A stretch of DNA of 64,000 nt from Spirochaetales bacterium (GCA_016935735.1 JAFGQK010000300.1:3437-67436); one strand, 5' to 3'; shown: positions 2,083 through 31,345, numbered from the stretch's first letter. Numbers and translations: made by a program. The notes: generated by a model from the sequence alone, not told the origin.

Positions 2083-3738
2083 CTACGGGTTAATTTTCTC
2101 TATAAGAGAAAGATCTTTCACACTTAATGCAAGGATATCCTTTGCACTGCTATTCACGAAAATTTTATCCCGGTAAAAGCTTATAAACGTATCAGCATAT
2201 ATCGGCTCGGTAGAGCGGGCCACCTGTACCATACTTTCATCATATTTCCCAAGATAGTAATTCGTTCCATCAATGGTGATTGCATAGACATAGCTGCCCT
2301 CTTTTTCAACAAAACTCCGGTGGAAAATATTGTCCGTTCCTTTTGCAAGAACATCAAGCGTATCATAATCTAACAGGGTAAGGTAGTGTCCTGCTTCATG
2401 GGAGCCTGTATGGGTAATAACGACAATTCCCTTATCCCACAGGATATATTTTCTCCCACAGATATTTTTTACCGCGGATTCTGAAATTATTTTTTGTGTA
2501 GGTGCATCGATCTTATATAATTCATTGTTATAATGTCCCCCGGTAAGATATTCTTTTATTTTCAGGTAGTAAAATATTCCTTTGTAGATTTTTTCTTCTT
2601 TTTCCTTTTCTTCTATAGTCTTTTCAATAAATTCTTCCGGATTATCTTTCGCTTCCTCGATCATTTTGTCTTTTTCAAGATCCTTTTTGTCTTCTTCAAT
2701 ATCCTTCCTGTCTTCTTCTATTTTGTCTTCTTCTTTTGTAATCCGGTCTTCCTCTTTTGTCACCCGGTCTTCTTCTTTTATCACCCGGTCTTCTTCCTTT
2801 GTTACCCGGTCTTCTTCGTCGGTAATCCGCTTTTCTTCTTCTATAATCCGCTCTTCTTCCTTTTTCCGCTCTTCTTCGTCCTTTATTTCATCAACTTTTT
2901 CCTTATCTTCTTCGAGTTTCGTCTTATCTTCTTCGAGTTTCGTCTTATCTTCTTCGAGTTTCGTCTTATCTTCTTCGAGTTTTGTCCTGTCTTCCTCCAG
3001 AATTCCTTTATCTTCTTCCAGTTTTTCTTCTTTTTCTTCAATGACACGTTCCTGGAGGTCGATCATATCCTCCCGCTCCTCGATTGCCTTGTCTTCTTCG
3101 TCCTTTAACGCTTCGATTGTGTCTTCGGTTAATTCTCCCATATCCAGGGAACTGATATCTCCCTTTTGTGCACCTTCACTTAACGGCACAAGGATTTTTG
3201 TTTTTCCCGGCCATTCCTTATAATTTGTCGCAAGTCCTGCGTTTGTTGCATCAAGATACCCCATGACTCTGTTTTTGTATTTTGTTTCCAGGTAAGAGAT
3301 TTCACCCCTGTGGATTGCATTATATACAGTGACAAAGAATGCAAGGGTACGGGCATCCCTTCCCGAATAGCCATATTGATATGAAAAAAATCCCATGAGT
3401 ATAAGCCTTAAGGTATCAATATGATTTACCCCACCGTACCTGGAGATAGATATAATATCCGCATCAAATTTTCCCGTTTCAGAGGGATCCGCCACATGAA
3501 TGGCAGAAAAAAAGTTATAATATTTCCCCTCTGATTTTCCTGCTTCAAGGTCTTTTGCCATCTTCGCACCCCAGGAGAGTATTTCCTCCACTGTATACTG
3601 CGGATTTTCCCCTGTATAATTTATAAACGTAACCTGTTTACCGCTTGCAGATTTCAGCTCATCAACATCAACTCCTAATGGAAATGAGTTAAAAAGCAGG
3701 ATAACGAAACATACTGCAATAATGAGTGTTCTTTTCAT
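2083..3738 (-). CDS. Secreted protein with an N-terminal signal peptide and a central array of E/D/K-rich heptad repeats (EEDKTKL and EEDRVTK units). Single-alpha-helix- or spacer-like; function unknown.
   Basis: MKRTLIIAVCFVILLFNSF signal peptide. Roughly 20 consecutive 7-aa repeats are encoded by 21-bp DNA tandem repeats. Globular N- and C-terminal domains were not recognised. Confidence 0.6.
   Translation of the reverse strand: MKRTLIIAVCFVILLFNSFPLGVDVDELKSASGKQVTFINYTGENPQYTVEEILSWGAKMAKDLEAGKSEGKYYNFFSAIHVADPSETGKFDADIISISRYGGVNHIDTLRLILMGFFSYQYGYSGRDARTLAFFVTVYNAIHRGEISYLETKYKNRVMGYLDATNAGLATNYKEWPGKTKILVPLSEGAQKGDISSLDMGELTEDTIEALKDEEDKAIEEREDMIDLQERVIEEKEEKLEEDKGILEEDRTKLEEDKTKLEEDKTKLEEDKTKLEEDKEKVDEIKDEEERKKEEERIIEEEKRITDEEDRVTKEEDRVIKEEDRVTKEEDRITKEEDKIEEDRKDIEEDKKDLEKDKMIEEAKDNPEEFIEKTIEEKEKEEKIYKGIFYYLKIKEYLTGGHYNNELYKIDAPTQKIISESAVKNICGRKYILWDKGIVVITHTGSHEAGHYLTLLDYDTLDVLAKGTDNIFHRSFVEKEGSYVYAITIDGTNYYLGKYDESMVQVARSTEPIYADTFISFYRDKIFVNSSAKDILALSVKDLSLIEKINP
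2743..2995 (-). repeat. Two families of 21-bp tandem repeats lying inside the CDS 2083..3738
   Basis: On the + strand: ccggtcttcttcttttgtcac-like units (about 6 copies), then tcttcttcgagtttcgtctta units (4 near-perfect copies). Frame-preserving 21-nt period equals 7 aa. Confidence 0.85.
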
Positions 3739-6744: not shown

Positions 6745-6768
6745 TAATATTACACTACTTGTTTATTA

Positions 6769-6842
6769 GCCACCTTAGCTCAGCTGGCCAGAGCACGTGA
6801 TTTGTAATCTCGGAGTCCTCGGTTCGAATCCGAGAGGTGGCT
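6769..6842 (+). tRNA. tRNA-Thr (anticodon UGU)
   Basis: Hand-folded cloverleaf. Acceptor stem gccacct/aggtggc of 7 bp. D arm gctc/gagc. Anticodon loop tTTGTAa. T arm ctcgg-ttcgaat-ccgag. 5-nt variable loop. CCA not encoded. Confidence 0.85.
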
Positions 6843-6853
6843 TTCTTACCGGA

Positions 6854-7343: not shown

Positions 7344-8477
7344 ATGAAATATAGTTTTGTAATCCCCACATATAATAATAAAAGGCTTTTAGAAAATACT
7401 CTTGAAGCATTACATCATCAGGAGGGTTTCGGAAAAGATGAGTACCAGGCAGTGATAGTGGATGACGGCTCGGATGATAATACACACCAAATCATTGAAA
7501 AGCAAAACAGGAACTATAATCTGAAATATATTTTTTTGGACAGGATGACAGACTCATGCAGGGCAAAAGCAAGAAATTGCGGCTGGAAGAATGCAGATGG
7601 AGAAATAATTATTTTTATTGATTCGGATATAATTGTGAAGAGAAATTATCTGTCTCAATTAACCGGATGTTATGAAATGGAATCTAACATGGTTGTTTTC
7701 GGAACCAGGTTGATGCTGCAGGATGATATAGAGACGGAAGAAATATCAAATGGTGAAATATTCAGAAAGTATAAATTCGATAGATCCAAAGCGGAATATT
7801 TTGAACACAGACATTATTTGTTTAACACAATGTCATACAATATCAATTGCTTTTTAGACCCATGGTTGTATGCATACAGTTGTAATGTGGCTATTCCCAG
7901 GAAGATTATAAATGAAGAAAGGGGATTTGATGAGAACTATAAAGGCTGGGGAGTAGAGGACCTGGAATTGTCATATAAAATATATCTTAAGGGAGTAAAG
8001 TTTGTATTCAACAGCAATCTTGAAGCTTTTCATCAAAATCACACCAGAGCAACCAATGTTAACGTAAAAAGTGGTGTATATAATGCTGAATGTTTTATAC
8101 GTAAGTATCCTGATGCTTTAAAAATATTTCCTCACGAGGTTAAAAAACTCTTGCTGATAGGCGGCCTTGAACACGATTTTACAGGCATGCAGGAAGAAGT
8201 GGAATATATAGGAAAGAAAATAGAAGCTTGTTTACCTCCAAACACTAAATGCAATAAAACTGAAATAATAGAGTTCAAAAATAAAGCGGATATTGACAAG
8301 ATTAAAGCAAAAATTAAGAAATTAACAGCGAGCAGCGATATTAGAATTATTGTAAACGACTATGTAGAAGACACTGATTTAGGTATCTGGATACAATTAC
8401 TTGATAAGTCTGGAAGCGTACCGCTGTATTTTGTAATGTCAAAAAAATTGAATGCCCCTGGTTTCCCGGGGCCTTGA
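7344..8477 (+). CDS. Family-2 glycosyltransferase (GT-A fold) with a roughly 120-aa conserved C-terminal extension; paralog of 9991..11154
   Basis: YSFVIPTYNN ... VIVDDGSDDNT ... IIFIDSDIIV (DxD). C-terminal region shared with its paralog (DY.E..DLGIWIQLL). Confidence 0.8.
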   Translation: MKYSFVIPTYNNKRLLENTLEALHHQEGFGKDEYQAVIVDDGSDDNTHQIIEKQNRNYNLKYIFLDRMTDSCRAKARNCGWKNADGEIIIFIDSDIIVKRNYLSQLTGCYEMESNMVVFGTRLMLQDDIETEEISNGEIFRKYKFDRSKAEYFEHRHYLFNTMSYNINCFLDPWLYAYSCNVAIPRKIINEERGFDENYKGWGVEDLELSYKIYLKGVKFVFNSNLEAFHQNHTRATNVNVKSGVYNAECFIRKYPDALKIFPHEVKKLLLIGGLEHDFTGMQEEVEYIGKKIEACLPPNTKCNKTEIIEFKNKADIDKIKAKIKKLTASSDIRIIVNDYVEDTDLGIWIQLLDKSGSVPLYFVMSKKLNAPGFPGP

Positions 8478-8687
8478 TGATATATACTTAAATTTACTAA
8501 AATTTTGCTTGACAATAAATCTACTTTGTGTTACTTTTATTTCATTAATTTAATTCAGTTAAACAAATAATAAATAAATTTGGTCTACGTGGAGAAAATA
8601 GGTGAATTAATAAATGGATGTTTTCTATCAAAGACTATCGAGTAGACCGAAAGCTAAAATAATTATTTTAACCGGAGGTATAAATAT

Positions 8688-9866
8688 ATGGAATATACAG
8701 TAGGAACTAATTGGGATTTTGATTTAATAGATAAGATAAATTACCCTGAAGTAAAGTCGGTATTCGGAGGAATTCCCGATGCATTGATCGCAAGTGGAAG
8801 ATCATCCTTTATGATCAATCCGATTCAGGAAGAAAACCTGAAGAATTATATAGGTAAAGTGCACGAAAAGGGGTGGAAGTTCGAATTTAATGTCAATTCT
8901 GGTTGTATAGAAAATATCGAGTTAACACCGGCAGGGCATAAAAAAATATTGAAATATTTTGAGTGGATAGAAAGCCTGGGTGTTGATTCTGTTATTATTA
9001 GCATACCGAACTTAGTCCAGATAGTTAAAAAGTTTTTTCCGAAACTGGAAGTTAAAATATCAACCTATCAAAAAATAAATAGTGTGGAAATGGCCACCCG
9101 TTTTGAAGATATGGGAGCAGATGCGATAATGCTTTCAGAACATATAAACAGGGACTTCAAGCTTTTACAGGGAATAAGAAACAATATAAAGTGTAAATTG
9201 ATGCTGATCGCAAATGTGGGATGTGTTTATGCGTGTGCAAACATGCATAGCCATACAAACAGCGTAGCACACAGCGGTGCGGAATCAGCAATCAATACAA
9301 TATTAACCGAGGTGTATGCAGCGGATTGTTTATACAAAAGGATCAGCAATCCCGTGGAATTAATAAAATCACGCTGGATCAGACCGGAAGATGTCGGTTA
9401 CTACGAAGAAATAGGGATAGATATGTTTAAAATAATCGACAGGCATTCGAGTACAGAGGCCCTGGCAGAAAGAATGAAAGCATACCACGAAAGAAGTTAT
9501 GACGGTAATCTTATAGATTTACTTGGCCAGATCATCAACAAAAAAAAGGGTGCACCTATAGATATGGATAGAGTCTTTAATCTGAAAAATCCTGAAGATA
9601 TGAAAAAAGTGGAAAAATTCTTAGGGGTCTTAAATATCTTAATTTCCGATCTATATTACCTTGATAATAAAGCAATACCCGATGACTTTTTAGAAGAATT
9701 TAAAAAGAGAGATTGCAAAAGGATGTCCTGCCTGAAATGCGGTTACTGTAAAAAAATTGCAGACATGGTAATAAAGAAGACCCAGGATGACGAACAGATT
9801 CAAGGGACTATACATATGCTTAAAGAAGTAAAACAGGAGATACTTGACGGATCTTTACTTTATTAG
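8688..9866 (+). CDS. Peptidase U32 family protein (collagenase-like TIM barrel; the family that includes the Fe-S O2-independent hydroxylases UbiU/UbiV, RlhA and TrhP)
   Basis: Block-wise similarity to U32 proteins: N-terminus GTNWDFDLIDKINYPEVKSVFGG (compare AGNLEKL ... YGADAVY.GG); VDSVIISIPNLVQIV; LEVKISTYQKINSVEMATRFEDMGADAIMLSEHI; Cys-containing segment NVGCVYAC; C-terminal cluster CKRMSCLKCGYC. Confidence 0.6.
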   Translation: MEYTVGTNWDFDLIDKINYPEVKSVFGGIPDALIASGRSSFMINPIQEENLKNYIGKVHEKGWKFEFNVNSGCIENIELTPAGHKKILKYFEWIESLGVDSVIISIPNLVQIVKKFFPKLEVKISTYQKINSVEMATRFEDMGADAIMLSEHINRDFKLLQGIRNNIKCKLMLIANVGCVYACANMHSHTNSVAHSGAESAINTILTEVYAADCLYKRISNPVELIKSRWIRPEDVGYYEEIGIDMFKIIDRHSSTEALAERMKAYHERSYDGNLIDLLGQIINKKKGAPIDMDRVFNLKNPEDMKKVEKFLGVLNILISDLYYLDNKAIPDDFLEEFKKRDCKRMSCLKCGYCKKIADMVIKKTQDDEQIQGTIHMLKEVKQEILDGSLLY

Positions 9867-9990
9867 TTTGATAAGCCTTGTGCAGCACCTTAAAAAAACA
9901 ACAATTCGGGCCTTGACAAATGTTGAGGAATTCAACAAAATTACACCAATTGTCGTTTTTAAGAGGTGGTATTCAGTAACCTGAAAGTGG

Positions 9991-11154
9991 ATGATAAAAT
10001 ATAGTTTTGTGATACCTGCTTATAATAATAAACGGCTTCTCAAGAACACTCTGATAGCCTTGAATTATCAGGAGAATTTCGGAAAAGAAGATTACGAAGT
10101 TGTTATAATAGATGATGGCTCTGACGATAATACAGAAGCTTATATCAGTGATATAAACAAAAACTATGCTTGCCAGTACATTTACATTGAAAGAGACGAG
10201 AAATCCTGCCGGAGCAGAGCAAGGAATTACGGCTGGAATGCTGCAAAAGGCGGGGTAATAATTTTTATTGACTCGGATATATTAATTAATAGAAATTATT
10301 TAAAAGAAATCGAAAGATGTTTTGATATAGATGACAATATTATATTATTTGGTACAGTATTCAGGCTTAAAGAGGATATTTCCCTGGAAGATGTTGAAGA
10401 TGGAAGCATATTTAAACAATTTGTTTCAGGAATCAATAAAATAGAATATCTGGAAGAAAGGCATATTTTTTTTAATATTTTTTCCTATAATAATTATTTT
10501 CATCCTTTCAGTTGGAGTTTTGTTTTTAGCGGTAACGTCGCTGTATCCAGAAAAAACCTGAAGGCTATAGGCGGATTCGATGAAGCTTACGTGTGTTGGG
10601 GAGGAGAAGACACTGAATGGGGTTACAGGGCATATAATAATGGATTAAGGCTTGTATATAATCATAAACTTGAGGCATTGCATCAGTATCACCAGGAAGA
10701 GATACAGAAAAAAAATTCCAGTAATAAAGCCAATCTGGATTACTTTTTCAGAAAACATCCTCAAGCATTAAGTTTCTTACCGGAGGAATCAAGATATAAA
10801 GTCTTGTCTGGATTTTCAAAAAACGAGGAAAATACAATAAAAACTGAAGCTGAAATGAGAGACAGATTAATCAGGATACTTAATGATGTTGAAAAGAATA
10901 TACGAGATACAAATCAAAAAATAGAGATAACTGTTGCTTTGCGGGATAAAAATAGGTTTTTAGAGATAAAAGAAATAATTGACTTCTTATCAAAAAGACC
11001 GGGGATTTTATTAATAGTCAAGGATTATAATGAAACCGGTAATCTCGATGTATGGATTCAGTTAATGGGTAAAAGAGAAAGCACCCCAATGTATTACCCG
11101 ATGAATAGGGAAAAATTTGATGATTTTATCAGAAATTATAGAAGCAGCCTTTAG
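9991..11154 (+). CDS. Family-2 glycosyltransferase (GT-A fold) with a conserved C-terminal extension; paralog of 7344..8477
   Basis: YSFVIPAYNN ... VIIDDGSDDNT ... IIFIDSDILI. C-terminal LLIVKDYNETGNLDVWIQLMG. Confidence 0.8.
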   Translation: MIKYSFVIPAYNNKRLLKNTLIALNYQENFGKEDYEVVIIDDGSDDNTEAYISDINKNYACQYIYIERDEKSCRSRARNYGWNAAKGGVIIFIDSDILINRNYLKEIERCFDIDDNIILFGTVFRLKEDISLEDVEDGSIFKQFVSGINKIEYLEERHIFFNIFSYNNYFHPFSWSFVFSGNVAVSRKNLKAIGGFDEAYVCWGGEDTEWGYRAYNNGLRLVYNHKLEALHQYHQEEIQKKNSSNKANLDYFFRKHPQALSFLPEESRYKVLSGFSKNEENTIKTEAEMRDRLIRILNDVEKNIRDTNQKIEITVALRDKNRFLEIKEIIDFLSKRPGILLIVKDYNETGNLDVWIQLMGKRESTPMYYPMNREKFDDFIRNYRSSL

Positions 11155-11275: not shown

Positions 11276-11429
11276 CAATCTTTTGGATTGCCGGTATTTC
11301 CAATAGTAGTGGTTGCCTGAAAATTATCAGGACTAATTTATTATACTATAAAGAATTATTCACCATGCTAAATGTACCGATGAGGCAAATCACTTTATTA
11401 AGGAGTATATGTTATTTTACGCAAAATAA
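11276..11429 (+). promoter_or_regulatory. Structured leader element D1 (paralog of D2 at 14067..14181). It ends in an SD sequence plus the 6-codon uORF MLFYAK.
   Basis: About 70% identity to the region upstream of the 3HCDH gene. Conserved segments: ttttggatt..tatttccaat.gtagtggtt.gcc and ggcaaa.cactttat.aaggagtata.atg. Long-range complementarity agtggtt(t)gcc / ggcaaa(c)cact. Confidence 0.5.
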
Positions 11430-11538: not shown

Positions 11539-12273
11539 ATGCAGTATATTACCAAAAAGTTAATTGAAACCACTGGTATTATTGAGATTAATAATCCACC
11601 CCGGAATCTCATCGATGAACCGGAATTCCTCGATATCGATGATTTAAATGGCTGGATAATAAAAAACTCTTTAAAAGGAGTAATCATCAGAGGGGTGGGC
11701 AGGAATTTTTCCGCCGGTGCCAATAAAGAGAAATTTTACGAGAAAGTAATAACAAATAAGACAATGGAGGGGGAGTTCAGCCGGGGGAGAAAGATTCTTA
11801 ACTTTTTTGAGTCTCTGACCATACCCACCCTGGCCTTGATACAGGGGGCTTGTTTCGGGGCGGGTTTGGAAATTGCACTCAGTTGTCATTTAAGAATTTG
11901 CAGCGACAATGCCCTCATCGCCTTTCCTGAATCCAATTATGACCTGATGCCCGGTTTCACAGGCACCTACAGGTTACCCAGGTTAATCGGCAAAGGTAAA
12001 TCCCTTGAAATAATATTATCAGGGGAGATAATAGATCCGCTTAAGGCCCTGGCATACGGAATTGTGGATTATGTAAAACCGAAAAAGGAAGCTGATGATT
12101 TTGCCCTTGAATTGCTAAAAAAATTGACAGCGAACAGGCCGCTTCATGTGATCAATGCGATTACAAAATCAATAAATAATTATTTTCTGCTGGATAGAGA
12201 CTCTGCTTTAAAAGAGGAAGCCAAACTATTCTGTCAGCTGGTGAGACAAAAATATCATGATGAAAAAACTTGA
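11539..12273 (+). CDS. Enoyl-CoA hydratase/isomerase (crotonase-fold) family protein
   Basis: Crotonase-fold motifs: IIRGVGRNFSAGANKE, FGAGLEIALSCHLRI, FPESNYDLMPGFTGTYRLPRLIG. Confidence 0.75.
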   Translation: MQYITKKLIETTGIIEINNPPRNLIDEPEFLDIDDLNGWIIKNSLKGVIIRGVGRNFSAGANKEKFYEKVITNKTMEGEFSRGRKILNFFESLTIPTLALIQGACFGAGLEIALSCHLRICSDNALIAFPESNYDLMPGFTGTYRLPRLIGKGKSLEIILSGEIIDPLKALAYGIVDYVKPKKEADDFALELLKKLTANRPLHVINAITKSINNYFLLDRDSALKEEAKLFCQLVRQKYHDEKT

Positions 12274-12940
12274 TTCCATTCTTTGGGAAGAAGCGGATAG
12301 GATAGGTCATTTGATACTTAATGATCCTCCTGCTAATCCAATGGATGTTCATTTTTTTGAAATCCTGCAGCAGATAATAGATGTGAAGATTGATATCGAC
12401 AACATTGATGCTCTTGTGATATATGGACAGGGCAGACATTTTTCTGCCGGTGCGGATCTTGAAGATGTTACACGAGATGTGGTAACTGATACATTAAAAT
12501 ATCCTGATGCCTTGTGCCGGAATAGCCGGGCTTTTTCCTTTTTTTCGGACATGACTATACCGGTGATTGCTTTAATAAATGGGGTTTGTCTGGGATCAGC
12601 TCTTGAACTGGTCTTATGCTGCCACATCAGAATTGCCGGCAATACTGCCCTTTTAGGATTGCCCGAGTCCACCTTCGACTTGATGCCGGGCTGTGGAGGA
12701 ACACAAAGATTGGTGGATATAGTCGGCCTGTCTAAAGCCATGGAAATGATTTTTACAGGTAGTAATTTGAATGCAAAAGAAGCACTGGAAGCCGGTTTAG
12801 TGGATGCTGTTTTCCCAAAGACGAATATTACAACAGAAGCCACCAGGCTGGCAAAAGGTATTGCTGAAAATTATCAAAAGCACGATAAGAGACAATATAT
12901 AAAAAAATATTTATCCGGGCAGGTGACAAAATATGAGTAA
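12257..12940 (+). CDS. Enoyl-CoA hydratase/isomerase (crotonase-fold) family protein, second tandem copy
   Basis: GQGRHFSAGADLE; LGSALELVLCCHIRIA; LPESTFDLMPGCGGTQRL. Overlaps the preceding gene by 17 nt. Confidence 0.75.
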   Translation: MMKKLDSILWEEADRIGHLILNDPPANPMDVHFFEILQQIIDVKIDIDNIDALVIYGQGRHFSAGADLEDVTRDVVTDTLKYPDALCRNSRAFSFFSDMTIPVIALINGVCLGSALELVLCCHIRIAGNTALLGLPESTFDLMPGCGGTQRLVDIVGLSKAMEMIFTGSNLNAKEALEAGLVDAVFPKTNITTEATRLAKGIAENYQKHDKRQYIKKYLSGQVTKYE

Positions 12941-14048
12941 TAAATATGTAAAACTGATGGGCTGCGGTTCCTATCTGCCGGGCAAGCCTGTACCTTTTGA
13001 TGATGTGGATAAAGTATTGGGCTGTTTTACAAAAGCTCCACCCCAAATTATCAAGTGGTTGGAAAATATCAAACCGGTGATGAAAGAGATCCTGGAAGTA
13101 AAGTATTATCATTATGCCATTGATCCCGAAACCCGGGAATTTACGGAAGATAATCTGAGTCTTTGTGTAAAAGCTGCAGGGAAGGCGTTAGCCGACTGCG
13201 GCATGGAACCCGGTGATATTGATTTTATCATCTACGGAGGGCCCTACCTGTACCAGATGCCTTGCCTTTCAGTACAGATTCAGGATGCCCTGGGTATTGA
13301 AAACTGTGCAGAAATGTCCATCCAGGCAAACTGTACATCCGCCTACAAGGCGCTGATGACGGCTTATCACCTGATTCGTGACGGGGGCTGTAGGACACCC
13401 CTGGTACTTTCTTCGAATATGCCCAGTGCCCAGTTAAGGGTTGAACATTATCACCAGGAAATTGTCAGGAAAGAAGACCTGTTTTTGCGCTGGTTTTTAT
13501 GTGACGGGGCCGGGGCGTTGATTCTGCAGGAAAGTAATGAGAGATCAAAGGGATTTTACATTGAAAATGTCTATCTGGAATCACCCGGTAGGAGGAAACC
13601 TTCAGCAATGTATACGAACTGGCCGGGATATTATCTCAATCCGCAGGAGGTTTATGAAAAGGGTCTCCATCACTTGAAACAGATGTTTCAAAAGCAGTTA
13701 ACCGAACATTTTCACGAGGAAGGGGGAACTATTTTTTTTAAAGGATTGATGCGGATGATCGAAAAATGCAACATCGATCTCGGCCGGCTTAAATACCTGC
13801 AGATAAATATGCCTTCCAGGCATGTGGTGGATTTGATCATCGATGAGTGTAAAGTCCTGGGAATAGAGAAAGAGCAGATATATTCATCATTGAGTGAATA
13901 CGGATATACCGGGCCTCCTGCAGCCTTTATTTCCATAGACCAATTTGTGAAAGAAAAGAAATTAAACCACGGTGATTTACTGATCAGCTTTGTGACCGAG
14001 GTAAGTAAGTTTATGCAAGCCGGTTTCAGTTTATCTTATTTTGAATGA
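12933..14048 (+). CDS. Thiolase-fold condensing enzyme: 3-oxoacyl-ACP synthase III (FabH)-like, or alternatively an HMG-CoA-synthase-like enzyme
   Basis: FabH-like layout: VKAAGKALADCGMEPGDIDFIIY; candidate nucleophile IQANCTSAYKAL; His in NMPSRHVVD. Length 371 aa. Distinguishing FabH from HMGS would need HMM scoring. Confidence 0.55.
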   Translation: MSNKYVKLMGCGSYLPGKPVPFDDVDKVLGCFTKAPPQIIKWLENIKPVMKEILEVKYYHYAIDPETREFTEDNLSLCVKAAGKALADCGMEPGDIDFIIYGGPYLYQMPCLSVQIQDALGIENCAEMSIQANCTSAYKALMTAYHLIRDGGCRTPLVLSSNMPSAQLRVEHYHQEIVRKEDLFLRWFLCDGAGALILQESNERSKGFYIENVYLESPGRRKPSAMYTNWPGYYLNPQEVYEKGLHHLKQMFQKQLTEHFHEEGGTIFFKGLMRMIEKCNIDLGRLKYLQINMPSRHVVDLIIDECKVLGIEKEQIYSSLSEYGYTGPPAAFISIDQFVKEKKLNHGDLLISFVTEVSKFMQAGFSLSYFE

Positions 14049-14181: not shown

Positions 14182-15351
14182 ATGATACAATGCGTCGGTG
14201 TGATTGGTACAGGGAAAATGGGTACCAATATTCTCGATTACCTGTTACATTATGATTTTAAACTCAGATGGAAGTGCCACTACGAAAAAGATGTGTCAGT
14301 TCTGGATTCATTAATAGATCGAAAAGTAAAGCGTGTGCTGAAAATGCAGGAGCGTTATGATGAAAATACTTTTATACAGTACAGGGGGCGGATACAGATA
14401 AGCAGTTCGATTTACGTGTTAAAAGGTTGTGATCTGATTATTGAATCGGTAACGGAAGATAAAACGGTCAAGACCGATGTATTCCGTCAACTGAATCAAA
14501 TTATCACTCCCGAAACTATCTGTGTAACCAATACTTCCAGTCTGGATCCGGGCCTTCTGTTTCAGGGGTATAATCATAAAAATCGTTGCGGGGGCTACCA
14601 TTTTTTTTATCCCATACATTATAAAAATATCGTGGAAATCAATTGTACAGAGCAGACGGACAAAGCGACCCGGGAAATGTTAATTCATTTTTCAGAAAGT
14701 ATAAAAAAGCAGTACCTCATTCTTGATGAACCGGACCATTTTATATTGAATCGTATATTCTGCCCCCTCCAGGCACAGGCTTATCTTTTTCTGCAGGAAG
14801 GGATACTTACTGTTGATGAACTGGATAGTTTAATCCGGGAAAAAGTTTTTCCAATAGGTGTATTCGAGTTTATCGATTCAGTGGGGATAGATATAATCAG
14901 CACTTCTGTAAAAAATTATCTTTCCCATTATGCTCATAAGGAGTTTTTTAATCCCTGGATAGAGGCTATGGAGCAAATGGTTGCAACAGGAAACCTGGGT
15001 AAAAAAAGCGGCCAGGGATTTTACCGTTATTTGAAAGGGGGAAAACAGGCTATGATTTTTAATAATCAAAACAAAAACCCGCAGGCCCCCGGAGAATATA
15101 AACAAAGGGTCACTGATATGCTGGAAGCCCTCTATTTAAACGGATTCTGCCATGAAACAGGCAATATTCCCCCGGGAATTCTGGATAATGCAATAAAGGA
15201 ATATTGGGGAATGGATACGGGACCCCTTGATTTGTTGAAAAAAAGCGCCATCAATCAGCTGCGTTTAATGGAATTTTATAAAATGACAGGGAATGAATTT
15301 TATAAACCCGCGGCTGCCTGGGAAGGAGTGAACCAATTAAAAGAAAAGTAG
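14182..15351 (+). CDS. 3-hydroxyacyl-CoA dehydrogenase family protein (NAD-binding)
   Basis: Rossmann motif VGVIGTGKMG. 3HCDH signatures CDLIIESVTEDKTVK ... TNTSSL. C-terminal 3HCDH_C-like helical domain. Confidence 0.8.
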   Translation: MIQCVGVIGTGKMGTNILDYLLHYDFKLRWKCHYEKDVSVLDSLIDRKVKRVLKMQERYDENTFIQYRGRIQISSSIYVLKGCDLIIESVTEDKTVKTDVFRQLNQIITPETICVTNTSSLDPGLLFQGYNHKNRCGGYHFFYPIHYKNIVEINCTEQTDKATREMLIHFSESIKKQYLILDEPDHFILNRIFCPLQAQAYLFLQEGILTVDELDSLIREKVFPIGVFEFIDSVGIDIISTSVKNYLSHYAHKEFFNPWIEAMEQMVATGNLGKKSGQGFYRYLKGGKQAMIFNNQNKNPQAPGEYKQRVTDMLEALYLNGFCHETGNIPPGILDNAIKEYWGMDTGPLDLLKKSAINQLRLMEFYKMTGNEFYKPAAAWEGVNQLKEK

Positions 15352-16562
15352 TGATTAGCGGAATTGATATGATAACGGCCCTGGGATTGAATTATCAAAC
15401 CTGTTGGGAGAATTTGAAGAACGGACAGTCCGGGGTAAAAAAAATAACTCTTTTTGATCCGGAAGATAATGAAACCCGGATAGCTGCCCAATTACCCGAT
15501 GGTTTTGAAGAGTACGCCCGCGGTTATTATACCCGGAGACTTAAGCAGCAGATGACCCGGGTAACAAGAATGGCGTATGTCTGCGCTATTAATGCGGTGA
15601 ATAACAGCAGGATCGACTTTAACATGTTTGATCCTCTGCGGGTGGGTGTTATCCTGGGAATCGTGGATACCGGTTATAACAGCCTGGAACAGGAAGAAAG
15701 TGAGGACAATAGAATCCTGAAATCGATGAACAATGCTCCCTGTGCCTTATTATCCATCAAGTATAAGATTGAAGGCCCCTGTTTTCCTGTTAGCACCGCC
15801 TGCTCTTCCTCCGGGTATGCCATCGGTCTTGGGTATGATCTTATCGATAACAATAGATGTGATGCTGTTATTGTCGGGGGGGCGGATTCAACCCTGAGTC
15901 CGGAACAGGTGCGGGGATTCAACGAGTTATACGCTTTAAGTGTGAATAACCCGGAACCGGAAAAGGCCTCTTGTCCCTTCAGCCGGGAACGTGATGGTTT
16001 TGTGATCGGTGAAGGGGCTGGTATGCTTATCCTGGAATCCGAAGAGTCCGCATTAAAACGCAATGCGGAAATCTATGGGGAAATCGCCGGTTATGCGATG
16101 ACGACGGAAGCCTATAATTTACTTTCCCCGAAAAAGGATGGCGAGGGTATGGTGCGAACAATGGAACTTGCCGTCAAAAACGCCGGGATGACCGTTAATG
16201 ATATTGATTATATCAACGCCCATGGGACATCGACCTTCCTCAATGACCTCTGTGAAACCATGGCCATCAAAGCGCTTTTCAAAGAAAGGGCTTATTCTAT
16301 TCCTGTCACTTCGAGTAAATCAATGATCGGTCATACTATAGGGGCTGCCGGGGCTATAGAATCGATCATAACCGCTTTAAGTATAAAGGAAGGAATCCTT
16401 ACACCTACCATAAATCTGGAGTTTAATGACCCGGAATTGGATCTTGATTATGTTCCTTGCAAAGCCAGGAAGCAGGTTATCAACACCGGACTTTCCAATT
16501 CTTTCGCTTTTGGAGGACACAATGTTTCTATTGTTATTAAAAAGGCCTTTCGTAATCTTTGA
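15351..16562 (+). CDS. Beta-ketoacyl-ACP synthase (FabF/FabB-like KS, active-site Cys present)
   Basis: VSTACSSSGYAIG (catalytic Cys), HGTST and GHTIGAAG His motifs. GTG start overlaps the preceding TAG stop. Confidence 0.85.
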   Translation: MISGIDMITALGLNYQTCWENLKNGQSGVKKITLFDPEDNETRIAAQLPDGFEEYARGYYTRRLKQQMTRVTRMAYVCAINAVNNSRIDFNMFDPLRVGVILGIVDTGYNSLEQEESEDNRILKSMNNAPCALLSIKYKIEGPCFPVSTACSSSGYAIGLGYDLIDNNRCDAVIVGGADSTLSPEQVRGFNELYALSVNNPEPEKASCPFSRERDGFVIGEGAGMLILESEESALKRNAEIYGEIAGYAMTTEAYNLLSPKKDGEGMVRTMELAVKNAGMTVNDIDYINAHGTSTFLNDLCETMAIKALFKERAYSIPVTSSKSMIGHTIGAAGAIESIITALSIKEGILTPTINLEFNDPELDLDYVPCKARKQVINTGLSNSFAFGGHNVSIVIKKAFRNL

Positions 16563-16658
16563 AGGTTTCATCACCGGAAAAACAGGAGTATTGATCAAAA
16601 TTTCTTATTGTAATATAATGTGTCAAATTGCACAAAATTTATAAGGTGGAGTATGTTA

Positions 16659-16961
16659 ATGAAAAAGATAACTGAAAATACACGTGCCGAGGTTAAAGAT
16701 ATCATATTTGACTTTTTAGCCGATGCATGTGAAATAGAGAAATCGGAATTAAATGAAGATATGAAAATTATCGAAGAATTGGGGGGCGATTCCCTGATGT
16801 TCTTAAGTATGCTGGAAATATTCAAGAAAAAATATAATTTGAATGTTGAACTGAAAGCCATCGGCAAATATATCTTAAAACATCCTGCAGAAACAATCGG
16901 GGAAATCATTGATGCTACTTTAGTAATTATTGAGTATGAAAATAGGATTGTTGACATGTAA
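16659..16961 (+). CDS. Acyl carrier protein
   Basis: LGGDSLMFLSMLE phosphopantetheine-attachment (DSL) motif. Start chosen at the ATG 8 nt after SD aaggtgg. The listed ORF extends further upstream. Confidence 0.75.
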   Translation: MKKITENTRAEVKDIIFDFLADACEIEKSELNEDMKIIEELGGDSLMFLSMLEIFKKKYNLNVELKAIGKYILKHPAETIGEIIDATLVIIEYENRIVDM

Positions 16962-17157: not shown

Positions 17158-18096
17158 TTGTATTTATGTATGAAAAATAATGTAATGGCAGATATTGTGT
17201 TCCCGGCTTTTGGTGCGGAATACCTGGGTTGCGAAAGGGATTTTGTCCAGCAGGAAACAACCGGGATTGAATTTTACCTGCAAAGAGCGGAAAAAGCTGT
17301 AGATATCGATAAGCAGTTTATTGAGGCGGATAAAGGCGCAGAGGTCTACGATGAATTGCAATCCCAGTTTGCCAGCTATATTTACAGCTGTATCTTTGCG
17401 GATATCATTAATCAACGAGGAATCAAATCCGGGCTGGTGGCAGCGTATAGCATGGGATTGTACGCGGCCTTATACCATTGCGGAGTTTTTTCTTTTGAAG
17501 ATGGTTTACGCATTATCAGGGATGCCTGTCAACTGGCTCAGGCCACTGCAAAAGGTAAAAAGTTTGCTATGGGGGTCATTGTCGGTTTGGATGTTGATGA
17601 TGTAAAAGGTTTGATTTCCGCCCATGCAACCGGTGTGGATATAATCAATATCAACAATCAATATCAAATCATTATCTGTGGGCCGGAGAATGAAGTCGTG
17701 AAAATAATTACTGCTGCTCAAGATGAGGGGGCGTTGAAAGCTTATATCCTGCAGATAAAAAACCCCTATCATACAGCCCATGTAAAGTCTGCAAGGCATG
17801 AATTTGAAAAAGTGCTGGAAACCTATTCATTACAAAACAGCAAATACCCTCTGGTCTCTTCTCTGGATCAGAAGATATACAATACCCGGAAGGAAATAAT
17901 TAATGAAATGGTTAAAAACATTTATAATTCTTCCAACTGGTATAAAACAATGGAGGTATTGATTGAAAAGGGTTCAAAAAAAATCATCGAGTGCGGTCCG
18001 GGAAAGAGCCTTTGTAATATGGCCAGATTCATACCAGGGGATTACAAAATATACCATATGAAACTGGTTTACAATAATAATTTCAACCTCAAATAA
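17158..18096 (+). CDS. Acyltransferase (malonyl-CoA:ACP transacylase-like, FabD fold)
   Basis: FPAFGAEYLG N-terminus. Nucleophile elbow AYSMGLYAAL in the GHSxG position. Length 312 aa. The true start may be one of the internal Met residues (MADIVFP). Confidence 0.6.
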   Translation: MYLCMKNNVMADIVFPAFGAEYLGCERDFVQQETTGIEFYLQRAEKAVDIDKQFIEADKGAEVYDELQSQFASYIYSCIFADIINQRGIKSGLVAAYSMGLYAALYHCGVFSFEDGLRIIRDACQLAQATAKGKKFAMGVIVGLDVDDVKGLISAHATGVDIININNQYQIIICGPENEVVKIITAAQDEGALKAYILQIKNPYHTAHVKSARHEFEKVLETYSLQNSKYPLVSSLDQKIYNTRKEIINEMVKNIYNSSNWYKTMEVLIEKGSKKIIECGPGKSLCNMARFIPGDYKIYHMKLVYNNNFNLK

Positions 18097-18134: not shown

Positions 18135-19478
18135 CTAAATAGTATCCGTGCCTTCTTTAATCAACCAGAGATCGGAAACATTTTTATAAAATTCTTCGAG
18201 GGGTAATGTTGTTTTTAATACCGAATTAAAAAAATTGTATTTATTAAGGTCATAATCAATAATCTGTTCCTTTACTTGATTGTAATACACAGTTCCGGGC
18301 ATGGGAGTAAGAATCGTATACCCCGCATAGACTACTTTGTGGGAGTTTGAATAATCAGCCATGGCCTTAAAATCATCTTCCTTATAATAAGGAGGAATGA
18401 CATAATTTCCCCGGATCTTTATCCCATTGGCCTGGAGTATATTAATCGCCTTTTCTATCAGTTCCGGCCTGGTATCTTTATTATATTTTTTTAATTCATC
18501 ATAGCGATAGGATTCAAAACCGCAGATAACTACTTGCAGACCGCATTGAGCCAGTTTCTCGATTAAATCGGGATGCGCGGCTACCGTGTCTACACGAATA
18601 TCAATGACCAGCTCCTTTTTTATGTTTTCTTCCAGGATACGGTCACATAATTGGTGAATGAATCCGGGATTCACGACTGTGTTCGCATCGGCAAAACGAA
18701 TAACGTTATACTCAGGATCTATGGATTGCATTTCATCAATAATGCTTTTTATCTCCCTCTGGTAAAATTTTCCTTTGTATTGAGGCCGGATGGAACAGAA
18801 AGAACAATTGTAGGGGCATCCCAGTGAAGTAAAAATATAGGTGATCGGGCCGATTTTTCCCCGTATTTTGTAGGCCTGTATCCATTTTTTGATAAATGAA
18901 CGGTCCGGCACGATAAAATCCTGCCCGGCTGAATAATACCGGGTTGTTAAAGGCTTTCCGGGAACCAATTGATTGTGCTTATTAATTAATATTCCGGCAA
19001 CGGCTTCTACATCTTTGTTTTCCTGTTTTGCGCTGACGATTTCTCTGAAAATTTTAGCGGATTCCCCGGGACAGATAATATCCGCCGCGGTACTGATAAA
19101 ATCCTCCGGACATAATGTTGCATGGAGTCCGCCGGCAATGGTAAGGATGTTATGATTATAGGTTTTTACAGTTTTTAAAATAGCGGCTCCACCGTTAAAT
19201 TCCGATGCTATAAAAGTAACCCCGACCAAATCAGGATTGATTTTTTCAAGGTATTGACGGGTTAATTCGCCGGGGGGAGGAGCATGCGGGTGTAAATCAT
19301 ATTCTGCTTTCATATCCAGGACTGTAACATCATGGTCCCTGACTGCCCCGGCAACGGTCAATAATCCCAACGGAGGGCCGATTAATTTCTGATGAATAAA
19401 TTTTTTGGCATCTGCAGAAGCATAGTGAAATATTCCATTTTCATTTGATCTGGGCGGATTGATTAAAAGAATTTTCAT
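18135..19478 (-). CDS. B12-binding domain radical SAM protein (class B rSAM)
   Basis: N-terminal cobalamin-binding-like domain (ILLINPP ... GPPLGLLTVAGAV). LGCPYNCSFCS CxxxCxxC motif. Length 447 aa. Confidence 0.8.
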   Translation of the reverse strand: MKILLINPPRSNENGIFHYASADAKKFIHQKLIGPPLGLLTVAGAVRDHDVTVLDMKAEYDLHPHAPPPGELTRQYLEKINPDLVGVTFIASEFNGGAAILKTVKTYNHNILTIAGGLHATLCPEDFISTAADIICPGESAKIFREIVSAKQENKDVEAVAGILINKHNQLVPGKPLTTRYYSAGQDFIVPDRSFIKKWIQAYKIRGKIGPITYIFTSLGCPYNCSFCSIRPQYKGKFYQREIKSIIDEMQSIDPEYNVIRFADANTVVNPGFIHQLCDRILEENIKKELVIDIRVDTVAAHPDLIEKLAQCGLQVVICGFESYRYDELKKYNKDTRPELIEKAINILQANGIKIRGNYVIPPYYKEDDFKAMADYSNSHKVVYAGYTILTPMPGTVYYNQVKEQIIDYDLNKYNFFNSVLKTTLPLEEFYKNVSDLWLIKEGTDTI

Positions 19479-19692: not shown

Positions 19693-19807
19693 TAACTGAA
19701 AAATTATAGAGGGCAAGTTGTAATTTCCTAAATAAATTTTAACTCTTGACAGGGAAATTTGTCTTAAAAGAATCTATTTTAAACAAACAGAAAGAAGGAT
19801 TTTGTTT

Positions 19808-20773
19808 ATGGAAAATGATATTTTTCAGAAAGATTTGAAACACATAGGGATTGTCCTTTCATTTACATGTAATCTGAAGTGTAAAATGTGTAAATTATGG
19901 ATGAAGCCCCCATTGTCGCTTTCCCTGGATTCGATCAAGAGTATATTAAAACAGGCTAAAGCATTGGGTGCAGACATTTTTACACCTTTCGGGGGGGAAC
20001 CGGTATTAAGAAAAGATATTTTTGAAATTTTTAGTTATGCCCACCAATTAGGGTATGATATTGAATTTGTGACAAATGGAACTTTAATCAATGAGCAGGT
20101 AGCTGAAAGATTATTCAAGTATATATCCGGGATTTCCATATCCATTGAAGGATCGAAAGAACATCACGATGAAATAAGAGGTAATGGGACTTTTGATAAG
20201 GCAATCTCCGCAGTCAAGTTTCTGACAAAGTACAAACGCCGGGATGCGAATATCTGTTTAACTATGGTCGTAACCAAAAATAGCTATAAATATATGAAAA
20301 AACTTGTCGATTTGGCCAGTGAGCTCAAAGTTGATAAAATTTTTTACCAACCTTTCAACAGGGCCCAGGCAAGAAAAGAAAATGTACATGACTTTCTGGT
20401 CCCGGCAGTCGAAATTCCCGTTTTGCAGCTGGAAATAGAGAGTACCATCAATTATGCAATGCACAAGAATGTACAATTGGGTTCTGTTATCGAATTTAAA
20501 TTGATCCCTTTATACTTTAAACTAAATGGTAAAATAAAACCAACAAAAGGATGCTTCTTACCATACCATGATATGTTAATTATTCCCAATGGTAAAGTAT
20601 TTGCTTGTCCCTTCGAGCGTATTGAAGTAGGTGATATCAATGAGAACAATCTTGACTATATCTGGAATTCCGAAAAATATGAAAAACAAAGAGAAAAAGC
20701 AAGATTAAAAAAATGCCGCGGTTGTCTTGCCAATTGCTCAGATTTGGATTCATATAAAATAGAAAGTGCATAA
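19808..20773 (+). CDS. Radical SAM protein with C-terminal SPASM/twitch Cys-rich domain
   Basis: FTCNLKCKMCK CxxxCxxC. C-terminal CFLPYH ... ACPFE ... CRGCLANCSD. SD gaaagaagga 8 nt upstream of the ATG at 19808. The listed ORF begins at an upstream TTG. Confidence 0.8.
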   Translation: MENDIFQKDLKHIGIVLSFTCNLKCKMCKLWMKPPLSLSLDSIKSILKQAKALGADIFTPFGGEPVLRKDIFEIFSYAHQLGYDIEFVTNGTLINEQVAERLFKYISGISISIEGSKEHHDEIRGNGTFDKAISAVKFLTKYKRRDANICLTMVVTKNSYKYMKKLVDLASELKVDKIFYQPFNRAQARKENVHDFLVPAVEIPVLQLEIESTINYAMHKNVQLGSVIEFKLIPLYFKLNGKIKPTKGCFLPYHDMLIIPNGKVFACPFERIEVGDINENNLDYIWNSEKYEKQREKARLKKCRGCLANCSDLDSYKIESA

Positions 20774-20798: not shown

Positions 20799-21644
20799 TT
20801 ATTTTAAACCGTTATGCGATTTATAATATTTTACGATGAGACATTCGTTAAAACGCTTTATTACATTATATGCTAAACCAAAGCCGTCAAGCAATTTCTT
20901 AATTTCATTACGTTCACGATAAGGTGTATCACCAGGAAGACTGTCATACAGATCTTTTGGGTCGATATTCATCTCTTTCGCCTGCATAAAAATTTCGGCC
21001 ATTTCCTGGCGTTCTTTTTTTAATATTCTTGAGAAAGTAATCCTTATCTTTATCCAGGAAAAAAAAACTCTCAAAAAATCTTTGTTTGTATATGTCATTA
21101 TCTGTTTTACCGCAAGCAAAGAACCTTTCCGGGCAAGTTCATCAATATCATTAAGTCTTTTGCGCTTTAGCTTACCCGAGGAATCAAGAATGCCGATTTT
21201 TTTATAAATTCTTTCAAGTACTCTCTCGACCTGGTAAAATGCGACAAAGAGGTGACCATGCAATGCAACAACACGCATAGCCTCATTAATTATTGTTTTG
21301 ATTAGTTTCTCATCCGAAAGACGATCCACCACACCGGAAGAAATAATAACTGTTTTATAAGAACAGTTCTCAAAAGGCAGGCTTCTTGCATTTGCTTTTA
21401 TTAATTTAATGGAATGCCTGATATAGGCGTATTTTATCATTTCATCTACGATATCGACACCGTCGGCTATATAACCTTTATCACGGAGATGTTTTACTAT
21501 CAGTCCCTGTCCTGCACCGATTACCAATACAGGGCTTGCAATATCATTAATTATTTTATCCGTCACATGAGTATTCATGTGACGGTTTTCCATTTTATCC
21601 CAGAAAGGACTCCATATTGACCACCATTTTATATTCTTATCCAT
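20799..21644 (-). CDS. Class I SAM-dependent methyltransferase
   Basis: VLVIGAGQGLIVKHL motif I, acidic D after the beta2 strand, Rossmann-like layout. Confidence 0.6.
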   Translation of the reverse strand: MDKNIKWWSIWSPFWDKMENRHMNTHVTDKIINDIASPVLVIGAGQGLIVKHLRDKGYIADGVDIVDEMIKYAYIRHSIKLIKANARSLPFENCSYKTVIISSGVVDRLSDEKLIKTIINEAMRVVALHGHLFVAFYQVERVLERIYKKIGILDSSGKLKRKRLNDIDELARKGSLLAVKQIMTYTNKDFLRVFFSWIKIRITFSRILKKERQEMAEIFMQAKEMNIDPKDLYDSLPGDTPYRERNEIKKLLDGFGLAYNVIKRFNECLIVKYYKSHNGLK

Positions 21645-23626: not shown

Positions 23627-23708
23627 GGGGAGATACCCGAGTGGCCAAAGGGGGCAGACTGTAAATCTGTTGGCTCAGCCTTCGAAGGTTCGAATCCTTC
23701 TCTCCCCA
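23627..23708 (+). tRNA. tRNA-Tyr (anticodon GUA), long variable arm
   Basis: ggggaga ... cccgagtggccaaaggg ... cagaCTGTAAAtctg ... long variable arm ... ggttcgaatcc ... tctcccc-a. Close to the E. coli tRNA-Tyr pattern. CCA not encoded. Confidence 0.85.
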
Positions 23709-30946: not shown

Positions 30947-30970
30947 CTTTTATCTAAAAGTGATTATAAA

Positions 30971-31345
30971 AGACGGGCATGATCATCGCTGTTACTTTTA
31001 TGTAACAGAGGAAAGTCCGGGCTCCATAGAGTAAAATACCGGGTAATACCCGGGTCTGCCCTGTAACAGGGTGGAACAGAAAGTACCACAGAAAAAATAC
31101 CGCCGGCACTCAATTATTGAGTGCAAGGTAAGGGTGAAAAGGCGGGGTAAGAGCCCACCACCTGGCCGGCAACGGACAGGGTATGGCAAACCTTATTTGG
31201 AGTAAAGCCAAGCAGCAGAGGATTACTCGTCCATAATCTGCGGGTAGGCTGCATGAACAAAATGTGAAAGCATTCTGTCAAGACAGATGATGATCACTAT
31301 ACCATGAAAATGGTATTTTACAGAACCCGGCTTATATGCCCGTCT
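30971..31345 (+). ncRNA. rnpB: RNase P RNA (bacterial type A)
   Basis: GAGGAAAGTCCGGGCTCCATAG (P4 5' strand) and ACAGAACCCGGCTTA (P4 3' strand). Perfect 10-bp P1 agacgggcat/atgcccgtct. GNRA-like and conserved A-rich loops (gtaagagcccaccacc, aggtaagggtgaaaaggcgg). Confidence 0.9.

Follow-up and report, generated by a model that had tools for sequence, protein, structure and literature searches.

A divergent U32-family protein with an altered cysteine architecture in a putative lipid or polyketide gene cluster of a Spirochaetales bacterium

Results

In this study, we analysed a stretch of 64,000 nucleotides from a Spirochaetales bacterium (GCA_016935735.1, JAFGQK010000300.1:3437-67436), referred to here as the window, in which the gene for a divergent member of the U32 family lies between two genes for family 2 glycosyltransferases (GT2a and GT2b). 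An earlier sequence-only reading had placed the three open reading frames (ORFs) exactly where we find them, all on the + strand (Table 1), and had taken them, as a plausible role, for a module that hydroxylates and then glycosylates the product of the surrounding island under anoxic conditions. The encoded proteins have 377 (GT2a), 392 (U32-like) and 387 (GT2b) amino acids (aa), and an NCBI contig labelled 'MAG: Spirochaetales bacterium' carries an annotated protein identical to the U32-like one.

Family and fold of the U32-like protein

The 392-aa protein belongs to the U32 family, as had been proposed, with a score of 45 bits against PF01136 (gathering score 22.4). When a profile of its subfamily was compared by hhalign with a canonical profile built from four members (TrhP, UbiU, RlhA and the canonical U32 of contig L094, described below), the two aligned over residues 8-312 with 99.1% probability (E 8e-18), and K248 and R252 fell on the 'KIEGR' motif. 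Moreover, the structural model of the protein (predicted local distance difference test, pLDDT, 91.8) shows a (beta/alpha)8 barrel of the Mk0906 type. The alignment with UbiU alone reached 35% probability and covered residues 21-132 only, short of the Cys region, which was likewise not reached by the alignment with UbiV alone (0.4% probability). A Pfam scan of the protein gave no match to the U32 C-terminal domain PF12392, which the sequence-only reading had suggested as a further check, and an NCBIfam scan of the window protein found no curated model that covers this subfamily. As judged by these comparisons, the protein is a true member of the U32 superfamily that stands outside all characterised hydroxylase families.

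Cysteine sites of the subfamily

Both Cys-containing segments noted in the sequence-only reading are present, namely NVGCVYAC (C179 and C183) and CKRMSCLKCGYC (C343, C348, C351 and C354), and they are parts of a pattern, C73...C179-X3-C183-X30-C214 plus C343-X4-C348-X2-C351-X2-C354, that runs through the subfamily. Apart from C73, all of these cysteines are invariant (100%) in a set of 83 distinct sequences whose identity goes as low as 31%. C73 occurs in 79 of the 83 (95%), the other 4 having Ser, and at least 95% of the set retain H189 and H195. The ligand motif published for the U32 family is CX6CX15CX3/4C (PMC6747719). The expected correspondence with these canonical ligands held for the first two positions, where C179 and C183 align with C170 and C177 of TrhP with a three-residue deletion between them (the X3 spacing), but not for ligands 3 and 4, which have no Cys counterpart in the hhalign alignment. 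The conservation of the cysteines argues strongly for two putative metal sites in this U32 subfamily.

Distribution and gene neighbourhoods

A word-indexed search recovered 760 relatives of the U32-like protein, and when one genome per species was scanned, at least 544 loci proved to carry this type of U32, its hosts being Nitrospirota, Thermodesulfobacteriota, Omnitrophota, Dehalococcoidia, Planctomycetota, Elusimicrobia and several Asgard archaeal lineages. Ten distinct contexts in which the U32 identity is at least 45%, the window included, were treated as close relatives, with genes counted within 10 kb. Genes for ketosynthases (KS), acyl carrier proteins (ACP) or polyketide synthases (PKS) occur in nine of the ten (the window, L001, L003, L004, L006, L007, L092, L093 and L094), and the exception is L009, where none surrounds the U32 gene.

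Three of these contexts, L006, L092 and L094, carry the proteins of a cassette found in the window at 24-51% identity (tblastn), L094, whose contig is cut upstream, in part only. The common cassette consists of two enoyl-CoA hydratases (ECH), a KS resembling StlD, a 3-hydroxyacyl-CoA dehydrogenase (3HCDH) and a B12-binding radical S-adenosylmethionine (SAM) enzyme. In L006, whose U32 is 56% identical to that of the window, a single-orientation array encodes KS, ACP, a protein like 3-ketoacyl-ACP synthase III (KASIII), B12 radical SAM enzyme, acyltransferase (AT), 3HCDH, ECH, ECH, U32, ABC transporter, GT4, GT2, GT2, phosphopantetheinyl transferase (PPTase) and MatE, in that order. The order in L092 is U32, AT, aldehyde:ferredoxin oxidoreductase (AFOR), ACP, ECH, thioesterase, ECH, KASIII-like protein, B12 radical SAM enzyme and 3HCDH, and that in L094 is 3HCDH, ECH, ECH, canonical U32, an unassigned ORF, glyoxalase, divergent U32, B12 radical SAM enzyme, ABC, GT4, GT4 and GT2. 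The AFOR of L092 (5448-7523), of the tungsten type, stands between the AT and the ACP of the homologous cassette, a hint that this variant uses reductive release or some aldehyde chemistry. The two U32 genes of L094, a Clostridia contig, lie two ORFs apart (2956-3927 and 5183-6361) and recall the UbiU/UbiV heterodimer; the canonical-type protein has 323 aa with C185-x6-C192-x18-C211, and the divergent-type protein has 392 aa.

The remaining contexts are more varied. In L093 the U32 gene has a type I PKS of 5,922 aa on one side and a nonribosomal peptide synthetase (NRPS) on the other, and in L003 it lies near a type I PKS. In L001 it accompanies UbiD, a pair resembling a KS and a chain length factor (KS/CLF) and a SPASM radical SAM enzyme, and in L004 a fusion of DeoC-type aldolase and methyltransferase, a PPTase, an archaeal-type 3-dehydroquinate (DHQ) synthase, two KS and a possible ACP encoded by an ORF of 73 aa. 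In L007, genes for KS, ACP, ketoreductase and a FabA/ApeI/ApeP-like dehydratase lie ~8 kb upstream of the U32 gene on the opposite strand. Enzymes related to ring formation thus recur beside the U32 gene, namely UbiD with the KS/CLF pair (L001), DHQ synthase with the DeoC-type aldolase and the KS/CLF pair (L004), and the StlD-like KS (window).

The L006 operon, with the same cassette and two GT2s of the same family, bears out the view that the U32 and GT2 genes belong to a biosynthetic cluster, and in L094 one GT2 of this family stands with 3HCDH, two ECH and a B12-like radical SAM enzyme. The idea of a dedicated GT2-U32-GT2 module, however, did not survive the comparison, as the window alone has the sandwich order and most close contexts (L001, L003, L004, L007, L009 and L093) have no GT2 of this family nearby. 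The sandwich is best seen as a probable local arrangement rather than a conserved module.

Unbiased clustering of neighbours in the wider family placed the B12-binding radical SAM enzyme first. It is represented by 109 ORFs from 50 of the 88 loci, and 100 of these ORFs share the strand of U32; KS genes were found in 13 of the 88. The family of this top neighbour includes the B12 radical SAM enzyme of the window, and in L094 such a gene directly adjoins the divergent U32. There are often two of these enzymes per locus, in many phyla including Asgard archaea (L011-L090, for example L019:1662-3044). Moreover, a chorismate mutase gene (93 aa, PF01817, E 1.7e-22) lies ~2 kb downstream of U32 on the same strand in five related deltaproteobacterial loci, L020, L028, L029, L040 and L048, which is of note given that the UbiU/V reactions take their oxygen from prephenate (PMC10990095). 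Taken together, and as far as sequence can tell, we consider this subfamily to be a real U32 enzyme whose set of cysteines is altered and enlarged and whose genomic role is new.

Ketosynthase and B12 radical SAM enzyme of the cassette

The KASIII-like protein of the window, which has 51% identical counterparts in L006 and L092, found its best PDB match in StlD (5gk0, E 2e-17), the best FabH match being at 1e-11. Enzymes of the StlD/DarB type condense beta-ketoacyl and 2-enoyl thioesters into cyclohexanedione or resorcinol rings in the Dar and Stl pathways, and the StlD-like KS hints that a cyclohexanedione or resorcinol might be the product in an anaerobe. Polyketide beta-branching by a hydroxymethylglutaryl-CoA synthase (HMGS) with ECH1/ECH2 was considered and rejected, the KASIII-like protein scoring only 25.6 bits to an HMGS model and lacking PF01154 and PF08540. 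The window B12 radical SAM enzyme scores ~123 bits, below the cutoffs and about equally, to the models of HpnR (hopanoid C-3 methylase) and BchE (anaerobic Mg-protoporphyrin cyclase), so that the scores do not narrow its reaction type.

Glycosyltransferase pair and C-terminal module

GT2a and GT2b are paralogs, as the sequence-only reading had it, being 41% identical from end to end (E 6e-100), and they show PF00535, the GT-A fold and the DxD motif of the GT2 family (D93-S-D95, with D93 invariant across this family). The C-terminal region said to be conserved between them over 110-120 residues is indeed conserved and is not a Pfam domain, but the strongly conserved part amounts to ~70 residues. 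It forms a beta-alpha-beta-alpha-beta module after a helical linker (GT2a residues ~305-364; model pLDDT 91.4) with the hallmark DYxExTDLDIWIQL...YYPMSKR, and D339 is invariant in 42 members of the family. The suspicion that this is an unusual appendage was upheld: the region gave no Pfam match, no common known domain such as TPR or SPOR and no appendage of a solved GT2, and no solved GT2 aligns beyond ~253 residues.

The module is kept in the window GT2s, the two L006 GT2s and the GT2s of L094 and L097-L099. An earlier word-indexed search with the GT2 C-terminal profile had returned two short proteins only, and an exhaustive profile search found the module in only 60 proteins among 1.84 billion representatives, nearly always at residues ~285-360 of a GT2 of 360-400 aa. 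The full-length GT2 is covered by ~90 sequence clusters, mostly from Clostridia, with Paenibacillaceae and Acidobacteria in addition. In L097, L098 and L099 a GT2 of this family occurs with no U32 in the 10-kb flanks, among ACP, radical SAM and ABC genes in the first two and between a flippase and a UbiA prenyltransferase in L099 (Paenibacillaceae).

The clearest partner of this GT2 family is the SPASM radical SAM enzyme, not U32, because of fusions and of the adjacency seen in L097 and L098, where the SPASM radical SAM gene lies directly 5' of the GT2. P0230 and P0253 are fusions of GT2, module and radical SAM/SPASM enzyme (733-737 aa), and the radical SAM half of P0230 (residues 414-725) matches the window SPASM enzyme at 19802-20773 end to end with 34% identity (E 8e-45). 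Other fusions of the GT2 family, with methyltransferase and radical SAM domains, have ~970 aa; the link of the GT2 family to radical SAM enzymes is drawn from P0230, P0253, L097:20402-21149 and L098:20300-21137. Three tandem paralogs of ~550 aa each, fusions of dienelactone hydrolase (DLH) and radical SAM domains, are found at L097:15323-20385 and L098:15297-20283 beside ACP, SPASM radical SAM, GT2, ABC and RND-adaptor genes, in what appears to be an unusual uncharacterised cluster.

The putative gene cluster and its host

The three genes and the cassette occupy the region from 7.3 to 22.9 kb, whose features are collected in Table 1 and which is best read as a putative orphan biosynthetic gene cluster.

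Table 1. Features of the cluster region and its surroundings, in window coordinates
Feature	Position	Strand	Evidence or remark
P83/100 family protein	2083..3738	-	E 9e-69
tRNA-Thr(TGT)	6768..6843	+	left boundary of cluster region; ARAGORN; Rfam tRNA 61.4 bits
GT2a, family-2 (GT-A fold) glycosyltransferase with C-terminal module	7344..8477	+	
GT2a C-terminal beta-alpha-beta-alpha-beta module	8256..8435	+	residues ~305-364
TTGACA hexamer in gap 5' of U32 gene	8510..8515	+	direct reading; not listed by promoter scan
Divergent U32-family protein, TIM barrel plus helical C-terminal region	8688..9866	+	
Promoter-like TTGACA-17-CAAAAT 5' of GT2b	9913..9941	+	10/12 matches; overall count not above shuffles
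GT2b, GT2a paralog	9991..11154	+	same C-terminal module at ~10924-11115
Weak terminator-like site	11316..11331		between GT2b and first ECH gene
Enoyl-CoA hydratase/crotonase family protein 1	11539..12273	+	PF00378 E 5.5e-31; counterparts L006, L092, L094
Enoyl-CoA hydratase/crotonase family protein 2	12257..12940	+	PF00378 E 2.4e-35; counterparts L006, L092, L094
KASIII-type ketosynthase, nearest StlD/DarB family	12933..14048	+	NCBIfam NF005293 104 bits (cutoff 450)
3-Hydroxyacyl-CoA dehydrogenase family protein	14182..15351	+	PF02737, PF00725
FabF-like beta-ketoacyl synthase, TACSSS active-site Cys motif	15351..16562	+	PF00109, PF02801; TIGR03150 417 bits
Acyl carrier protein, DSL phosphopantetheine attachment motif	16620..16961	+	PF00550 24.5 bits (cutoff 20.8)
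FabD-like malonyl-CoA:ACP acyltransferase	17158..18096	+	TIGR00128 156 bits, below cutoff; PF00698
B12-binding radical SAM enzyme	18135..19478	-	PF02310, PF04055
Radical SAM/SPASM enzyme	19802..20773	+	PF04055, PF13186
SAM-dependent methyltransferase, possible tailoring enzyme	20799..21644	-	PF13649, PF08241
Sulfotransferase, possible tailoring enzyme	21899..22879	-	PF00685 E 2.8e-40
tRNA-Tyr(GTA)	23627..23708	+	right boundary of cluster region
Small CxxCxxCC putative Zn/Fe-chelating protein	23795..24244	+	PF03692; just past tRNA-Tyr
Class A RNase P RNA	30970..31350	+	259 bits

The surrounding DNA is that of a spirochete chromosome, with a P83/100 homolog (Borrelia family), dnaG, rpoD, mreBC, PBP2, rodA and RNase P RNA in the window, and the host is presumably an anaerobe, given a gene content rich in radical SAM and Fe-S proteins. 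The tRNA-Thr and tRNA-Tyr genes flank the entire cluster, and GC content gives no clear island signal. The GC of the three genes is 33-36%, that of the KS core 39-46% and that of the window 38%; a foreign island by composition was rejected, the GC of the three genes being inside the range of the housekeeping genes of the window.

Both TTGACA hexamers that the sequence-only reading had proposed as promoter elements are present (8510-8515 and 9913-9918), but they carry no evidential weight as promoters because promoter-like sites across the region are no commoner than in shuffled sequence (26 observed against 23.2 +/- 4.6). The gap upstream of the U32 gene (8478-8687) measures 210 bp at 23% GC and holds no ORF, and an Rfam scan of the intergenic gaps gave no match.

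Discussion

It seems to us that the locus may well encode, with close to an even chance, an anaerobe lipid or polyketide pathway in which the U32 protein would carry out an oxidative tailoring step that needs no O2 and the GT2s would glycosylate as separate enzymes. The product would be derived from a fatty acid or polyketide, probably glycosylated, and possibly methylated or sulfated. The FabD-like AT, the ACP, the FabF-like KS, the 3HCDH and the two crotonases would build beta-keto and 2-enoyl acyl thioesters, which the StlD/DarB-like KS may join head to head into a ring of the cyclohexanedione or alkylresorcinol type. The U32 protein is a predicted metallo-enzyme with one site on the barrel face (C179, C183 and C214, with or without C73) and a second formed by the four C-terminal cysteines; its step would most likely be an O2-independent oxidation, conceivably hydroxylation of a ring or an enol by analogy with UbiU/UbiV acting on a prenylphenol, and it probably acts together with the B12 radical SAM enzyme of the cluster. 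GT2a and GT2b would add sugars as tailoring enzymes in their own right, and their C-terminal module probably serves for docking on, or as a linker towards, a SPASM radical SAM enzyme such as that of the window. The family and fold assignments, the conservation of the cysteines, the gene associations across genomes and the GT2-radical SAM fusions were observed directly, whereas in this scheme the metal content, the hydroxylase chemistry, the oxygen donor, the substrate, the ring formation, the order of steps and the role of the module are as we infer them.

Oxidative tailoring is favoured for the U32 protein because the known U32 reactions hydroxylate rings, because ring-related enzymes (StlD-like KS, KS/CLF-like pairs, UbiD and DHQ synthase) recur beside this clade, and because one clade carries chorismate mutase. 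Several observations weigh against it. The PF01136 match spans profile positions 2-82 of 233 only, no cutoff of a curated hydroxylase model is reached (TrhP, NF011996, is the sole NCBIfam match and has 24.9 bits where 534 are required), and no Cys corresponds to canonical ligands 3 and 4, so that the published CX6CX15CX3/4C motif is only half present; the C-terminal four-Cys site could hold Zn rather than Fe-S. The characterised ubiquinone enzyme is a UbiU-UbiV heterodimer, whereas the window has a single U32 gene: tblastn with UbiU, UbiV, TrhP, RlhA and the second U32 of L094 found no other in the 64 kb, and no chorismate mutase is encoded there either. Where a chorismate mutase does neighbour U32, the loci belong to a single deltaproteobacterial lineage, and the association may be inherited synteny. 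As to the ring, the score of the KASIII-like protein to the StlD/DarB model is below the NCBI cutoff, and no DarA/StlC-type aromatase was seen among the scanned window genes. Gaps of 124-384 bp separate the three genes from one another and from the first ECH gene, which speaks against taking their co-transcription with the cassette for granted, and L006 and L094 have no SPASM radical SAM gene within the retrieved DNA. Finally, a redox role coupled to a radical SAM enzyme is kept in view because the B12 radical SAM enzyme dominates the neighbours of the wider family.

This last role defines an explanation that we judge unlikely but that has to be taken seriously, in which the U32-like protein is no hydroxylase but a redox or accessory partner of the B12 radical SAM enzyme, the two forming a functional pair on lipids or polyketides. 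It could be an O2-independent oxidase or aromatase (cyclohexanedione to resorcinol), an IspH-like dehydratase or reductase with a three-Cys [4Fe-4S] cluster and an open iron, or an electron-transfer subunit. The excess of loci with a B12 radical SAM gene (50 of 88) over those with a KS gene (13) points this way. So does the barrel face, where only C179, C183 and C214 are strictly invariant, as fits a site-differentiated cluster, and so do the conservation of H189 and H195 and the lack of canonical ligands 3 and 4. The extra four-Cys site would suit an electron relay, there is no aromatase gene beside the StlD-like KS, and an IspH-like mechanism has been raised in a review (PMC11574389). However, every U32 with a genetically defined role has been tied to hydroxylation (PMC6747719, PMC10990095), several close relatives in PKS/NRPS clusters (L003, L004 and L093) have no B12 radical SAM gene in the retrieved DNA, and the chorismate mutase neighbour of one clade points to the use of prephenate.

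It is quite improbable that GT2a, U32 and GT2b form a unit of the cell-envelope or exopolysaccharide type whose adjacency to the KS cassette is incidental. The gaps and the weak terminator-like site before the ECH gene would fit such a unit, as would the slightly lower GC of the three genes, the name given by JGI to relatives of the GT2s ('glycosyltransferase involved in cell wall biosynthesis'), their best NCBIfam match (EpsD, far under its cutoff) and the flippase and UbiA prenyltransferase neighbours in L099; yet U32, the GT2 family and the KS/ECH/3HCDH cassette occur together in same-strand arrays of two unrelated metagenomic contigs (L006 and L094), KS, ACP or PKS genes accompany nine of the ten close U32 relatives, and the GC difference lies within the housekeeping range of the window. 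A true peptidase of the PrtC/collagenase type, for instance the leader peptidase of a pathway for ribosomally synthesized and post-translationally modified peptides (RiPPs) with SPASM and B12 radical SAM enzymes, is very hard to credit. The source annotations ('U32 family peptidase', 'collagenase-like PrtC family protease') and the historical family name would suggest it, and RiPPs are commonly matured by SPASM and B12 radical SAM enzymes; weak NCBIfam matches to RiPP radical SAM models were also obtained. Against this stand the seven invariant cysteines in two clustered motifs, which indicate a metallo-redox protein, and neighbours that are consistently KS, ACP, AT and ECH and not peptide-related; no ORF resembling a precursor peptide came to notice, though a search aimed at one was not made. 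The peptidase assignment of Fe-S U32 proteins is also considered doubtful in the literature (PMC6747719, PMC11574389).

If oxidative tailoring by the U32 protein is correct, it would extend prephenate-type or related O2-free oxidation to secondary metabolism. The ways in which strict anaerobes introduce oxygen functions into natural products and lipids when O2 is absent are for the most part unexplained, and the U32 'oxidases' are the newest answer. Ubiquinone and RNA are the only roles that a 2024 review gives for U32 proteins, and no paper that we could find in the searchable literature connects them with polyketide or lipid gene clusters or with B12 radical SAM enzymes. A wider proposal, which is possible but doubtful, is that these proteins are an unrecognised deep-branching U32 clade that spans at least 544 loci in the reference genomes of anaerobic Bacteria and Asgard archaea, has two metal sites (a three- or four-Cys site of the barrel and CX4CX2CX2C) and would serve anaerobes as a general O2-independent oxygenase or oxidase of lipids and polyketides, with B12 radical SAM partners; were it true, the clade would do for natural-product tailoring under anoxic conditions what P450 or flavin monooxygenases do where O2 is present, and would tie U32 chemistry to secondary metabolism for the first time. 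The subfamily members in KS/ACP/PKS clusters, paired with B12 radical SAM enzymes across phyla and including small operons, are concrete candidates for testing. Moreover, the altered ligands and the second Cys site may help to explain what the Fe-S clusters do in the U32 family, and the GT2 family, with its private C-terminal module and SPASM fusions, may lead to an unexplored partnership of glycosyltransferases and radical enzymes.

Comparison with characterised systems

The glycosyltransferases K4CP (chondroitin polymerase), TarP/TarS and the PglI-like AvpGT share the GT-A fold and the DxD motif with the window GT2s, but their structures leave the C-terminal ~125 residues (linker and module) of the latter unmatched. 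With regard to ring formation, the KASIII-type KS of the window, which stands beside an ACP, finds its best matches in DarB and StlD of the DarABC and StlC/StlD/StlE systems; unlike these, the window adds a FabF-like KS, AT, 3HCDH, two crotonases, radical SAM enzymes, U32 and GT2s.

Mk0906 (PDB 5d88), the only solved U32 structure, is 18% identical to the window protein and, with 247 residues solved, consists of the barrel only, whereas the window protein has ~140 residues more, including the four-Cys motif. The RNA-hydroxylating U32 proteins TrhP (YegQ) and RlhA (YdcP) gave the best profile-profile match (99.1%), and their 'KIEGR'-type motif is kept as K248...R252, but the window protein lacks their CX3C ligands 3 and 4, their C-terminal U32 domains (no PF12392) and any RNA-related context. 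The characterised U32 reactions are hydroxylations of aromatic or heteroaromatic rings with prephenate as oxygen donor, one of them on a lipidic phenol (PMC6747719, PMC10990095, PMC11574389). The U32 oxidases have so far been tied to ubiquinone synthesis and RNA base hydroxylation, with no activity shown in vitro (PMC10990095, PMC11574389), and the role of their clusters is unknown (PMC11574389).

The window protein departs from UbiU/UbiV of E. coli in several respects: sequence similarity is marginal, the Cys spacing is CX3C...X30C and not CX6CX16CX38C, a CX4CX2CX2C site is added, no UbiT-type SCP2 domain was found among the Pfam-scanned window neighbours, and the context is a KS/ACP cluster and not ubi genes. 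Nevertheless, they share the TIM barrel of the U32 superfamily; C169 of UbiU (ligand 1) aligns with a window Cys right after the equivalent beta-strand, with the second Cys on ligand 2, and both kinds of protein occur in anaerobes. Moreover, UbiU/V act on a lipidic alkylphenol, a compound chemically near to the product of alkylresorcinol type that might arise from the StlD-like KS.

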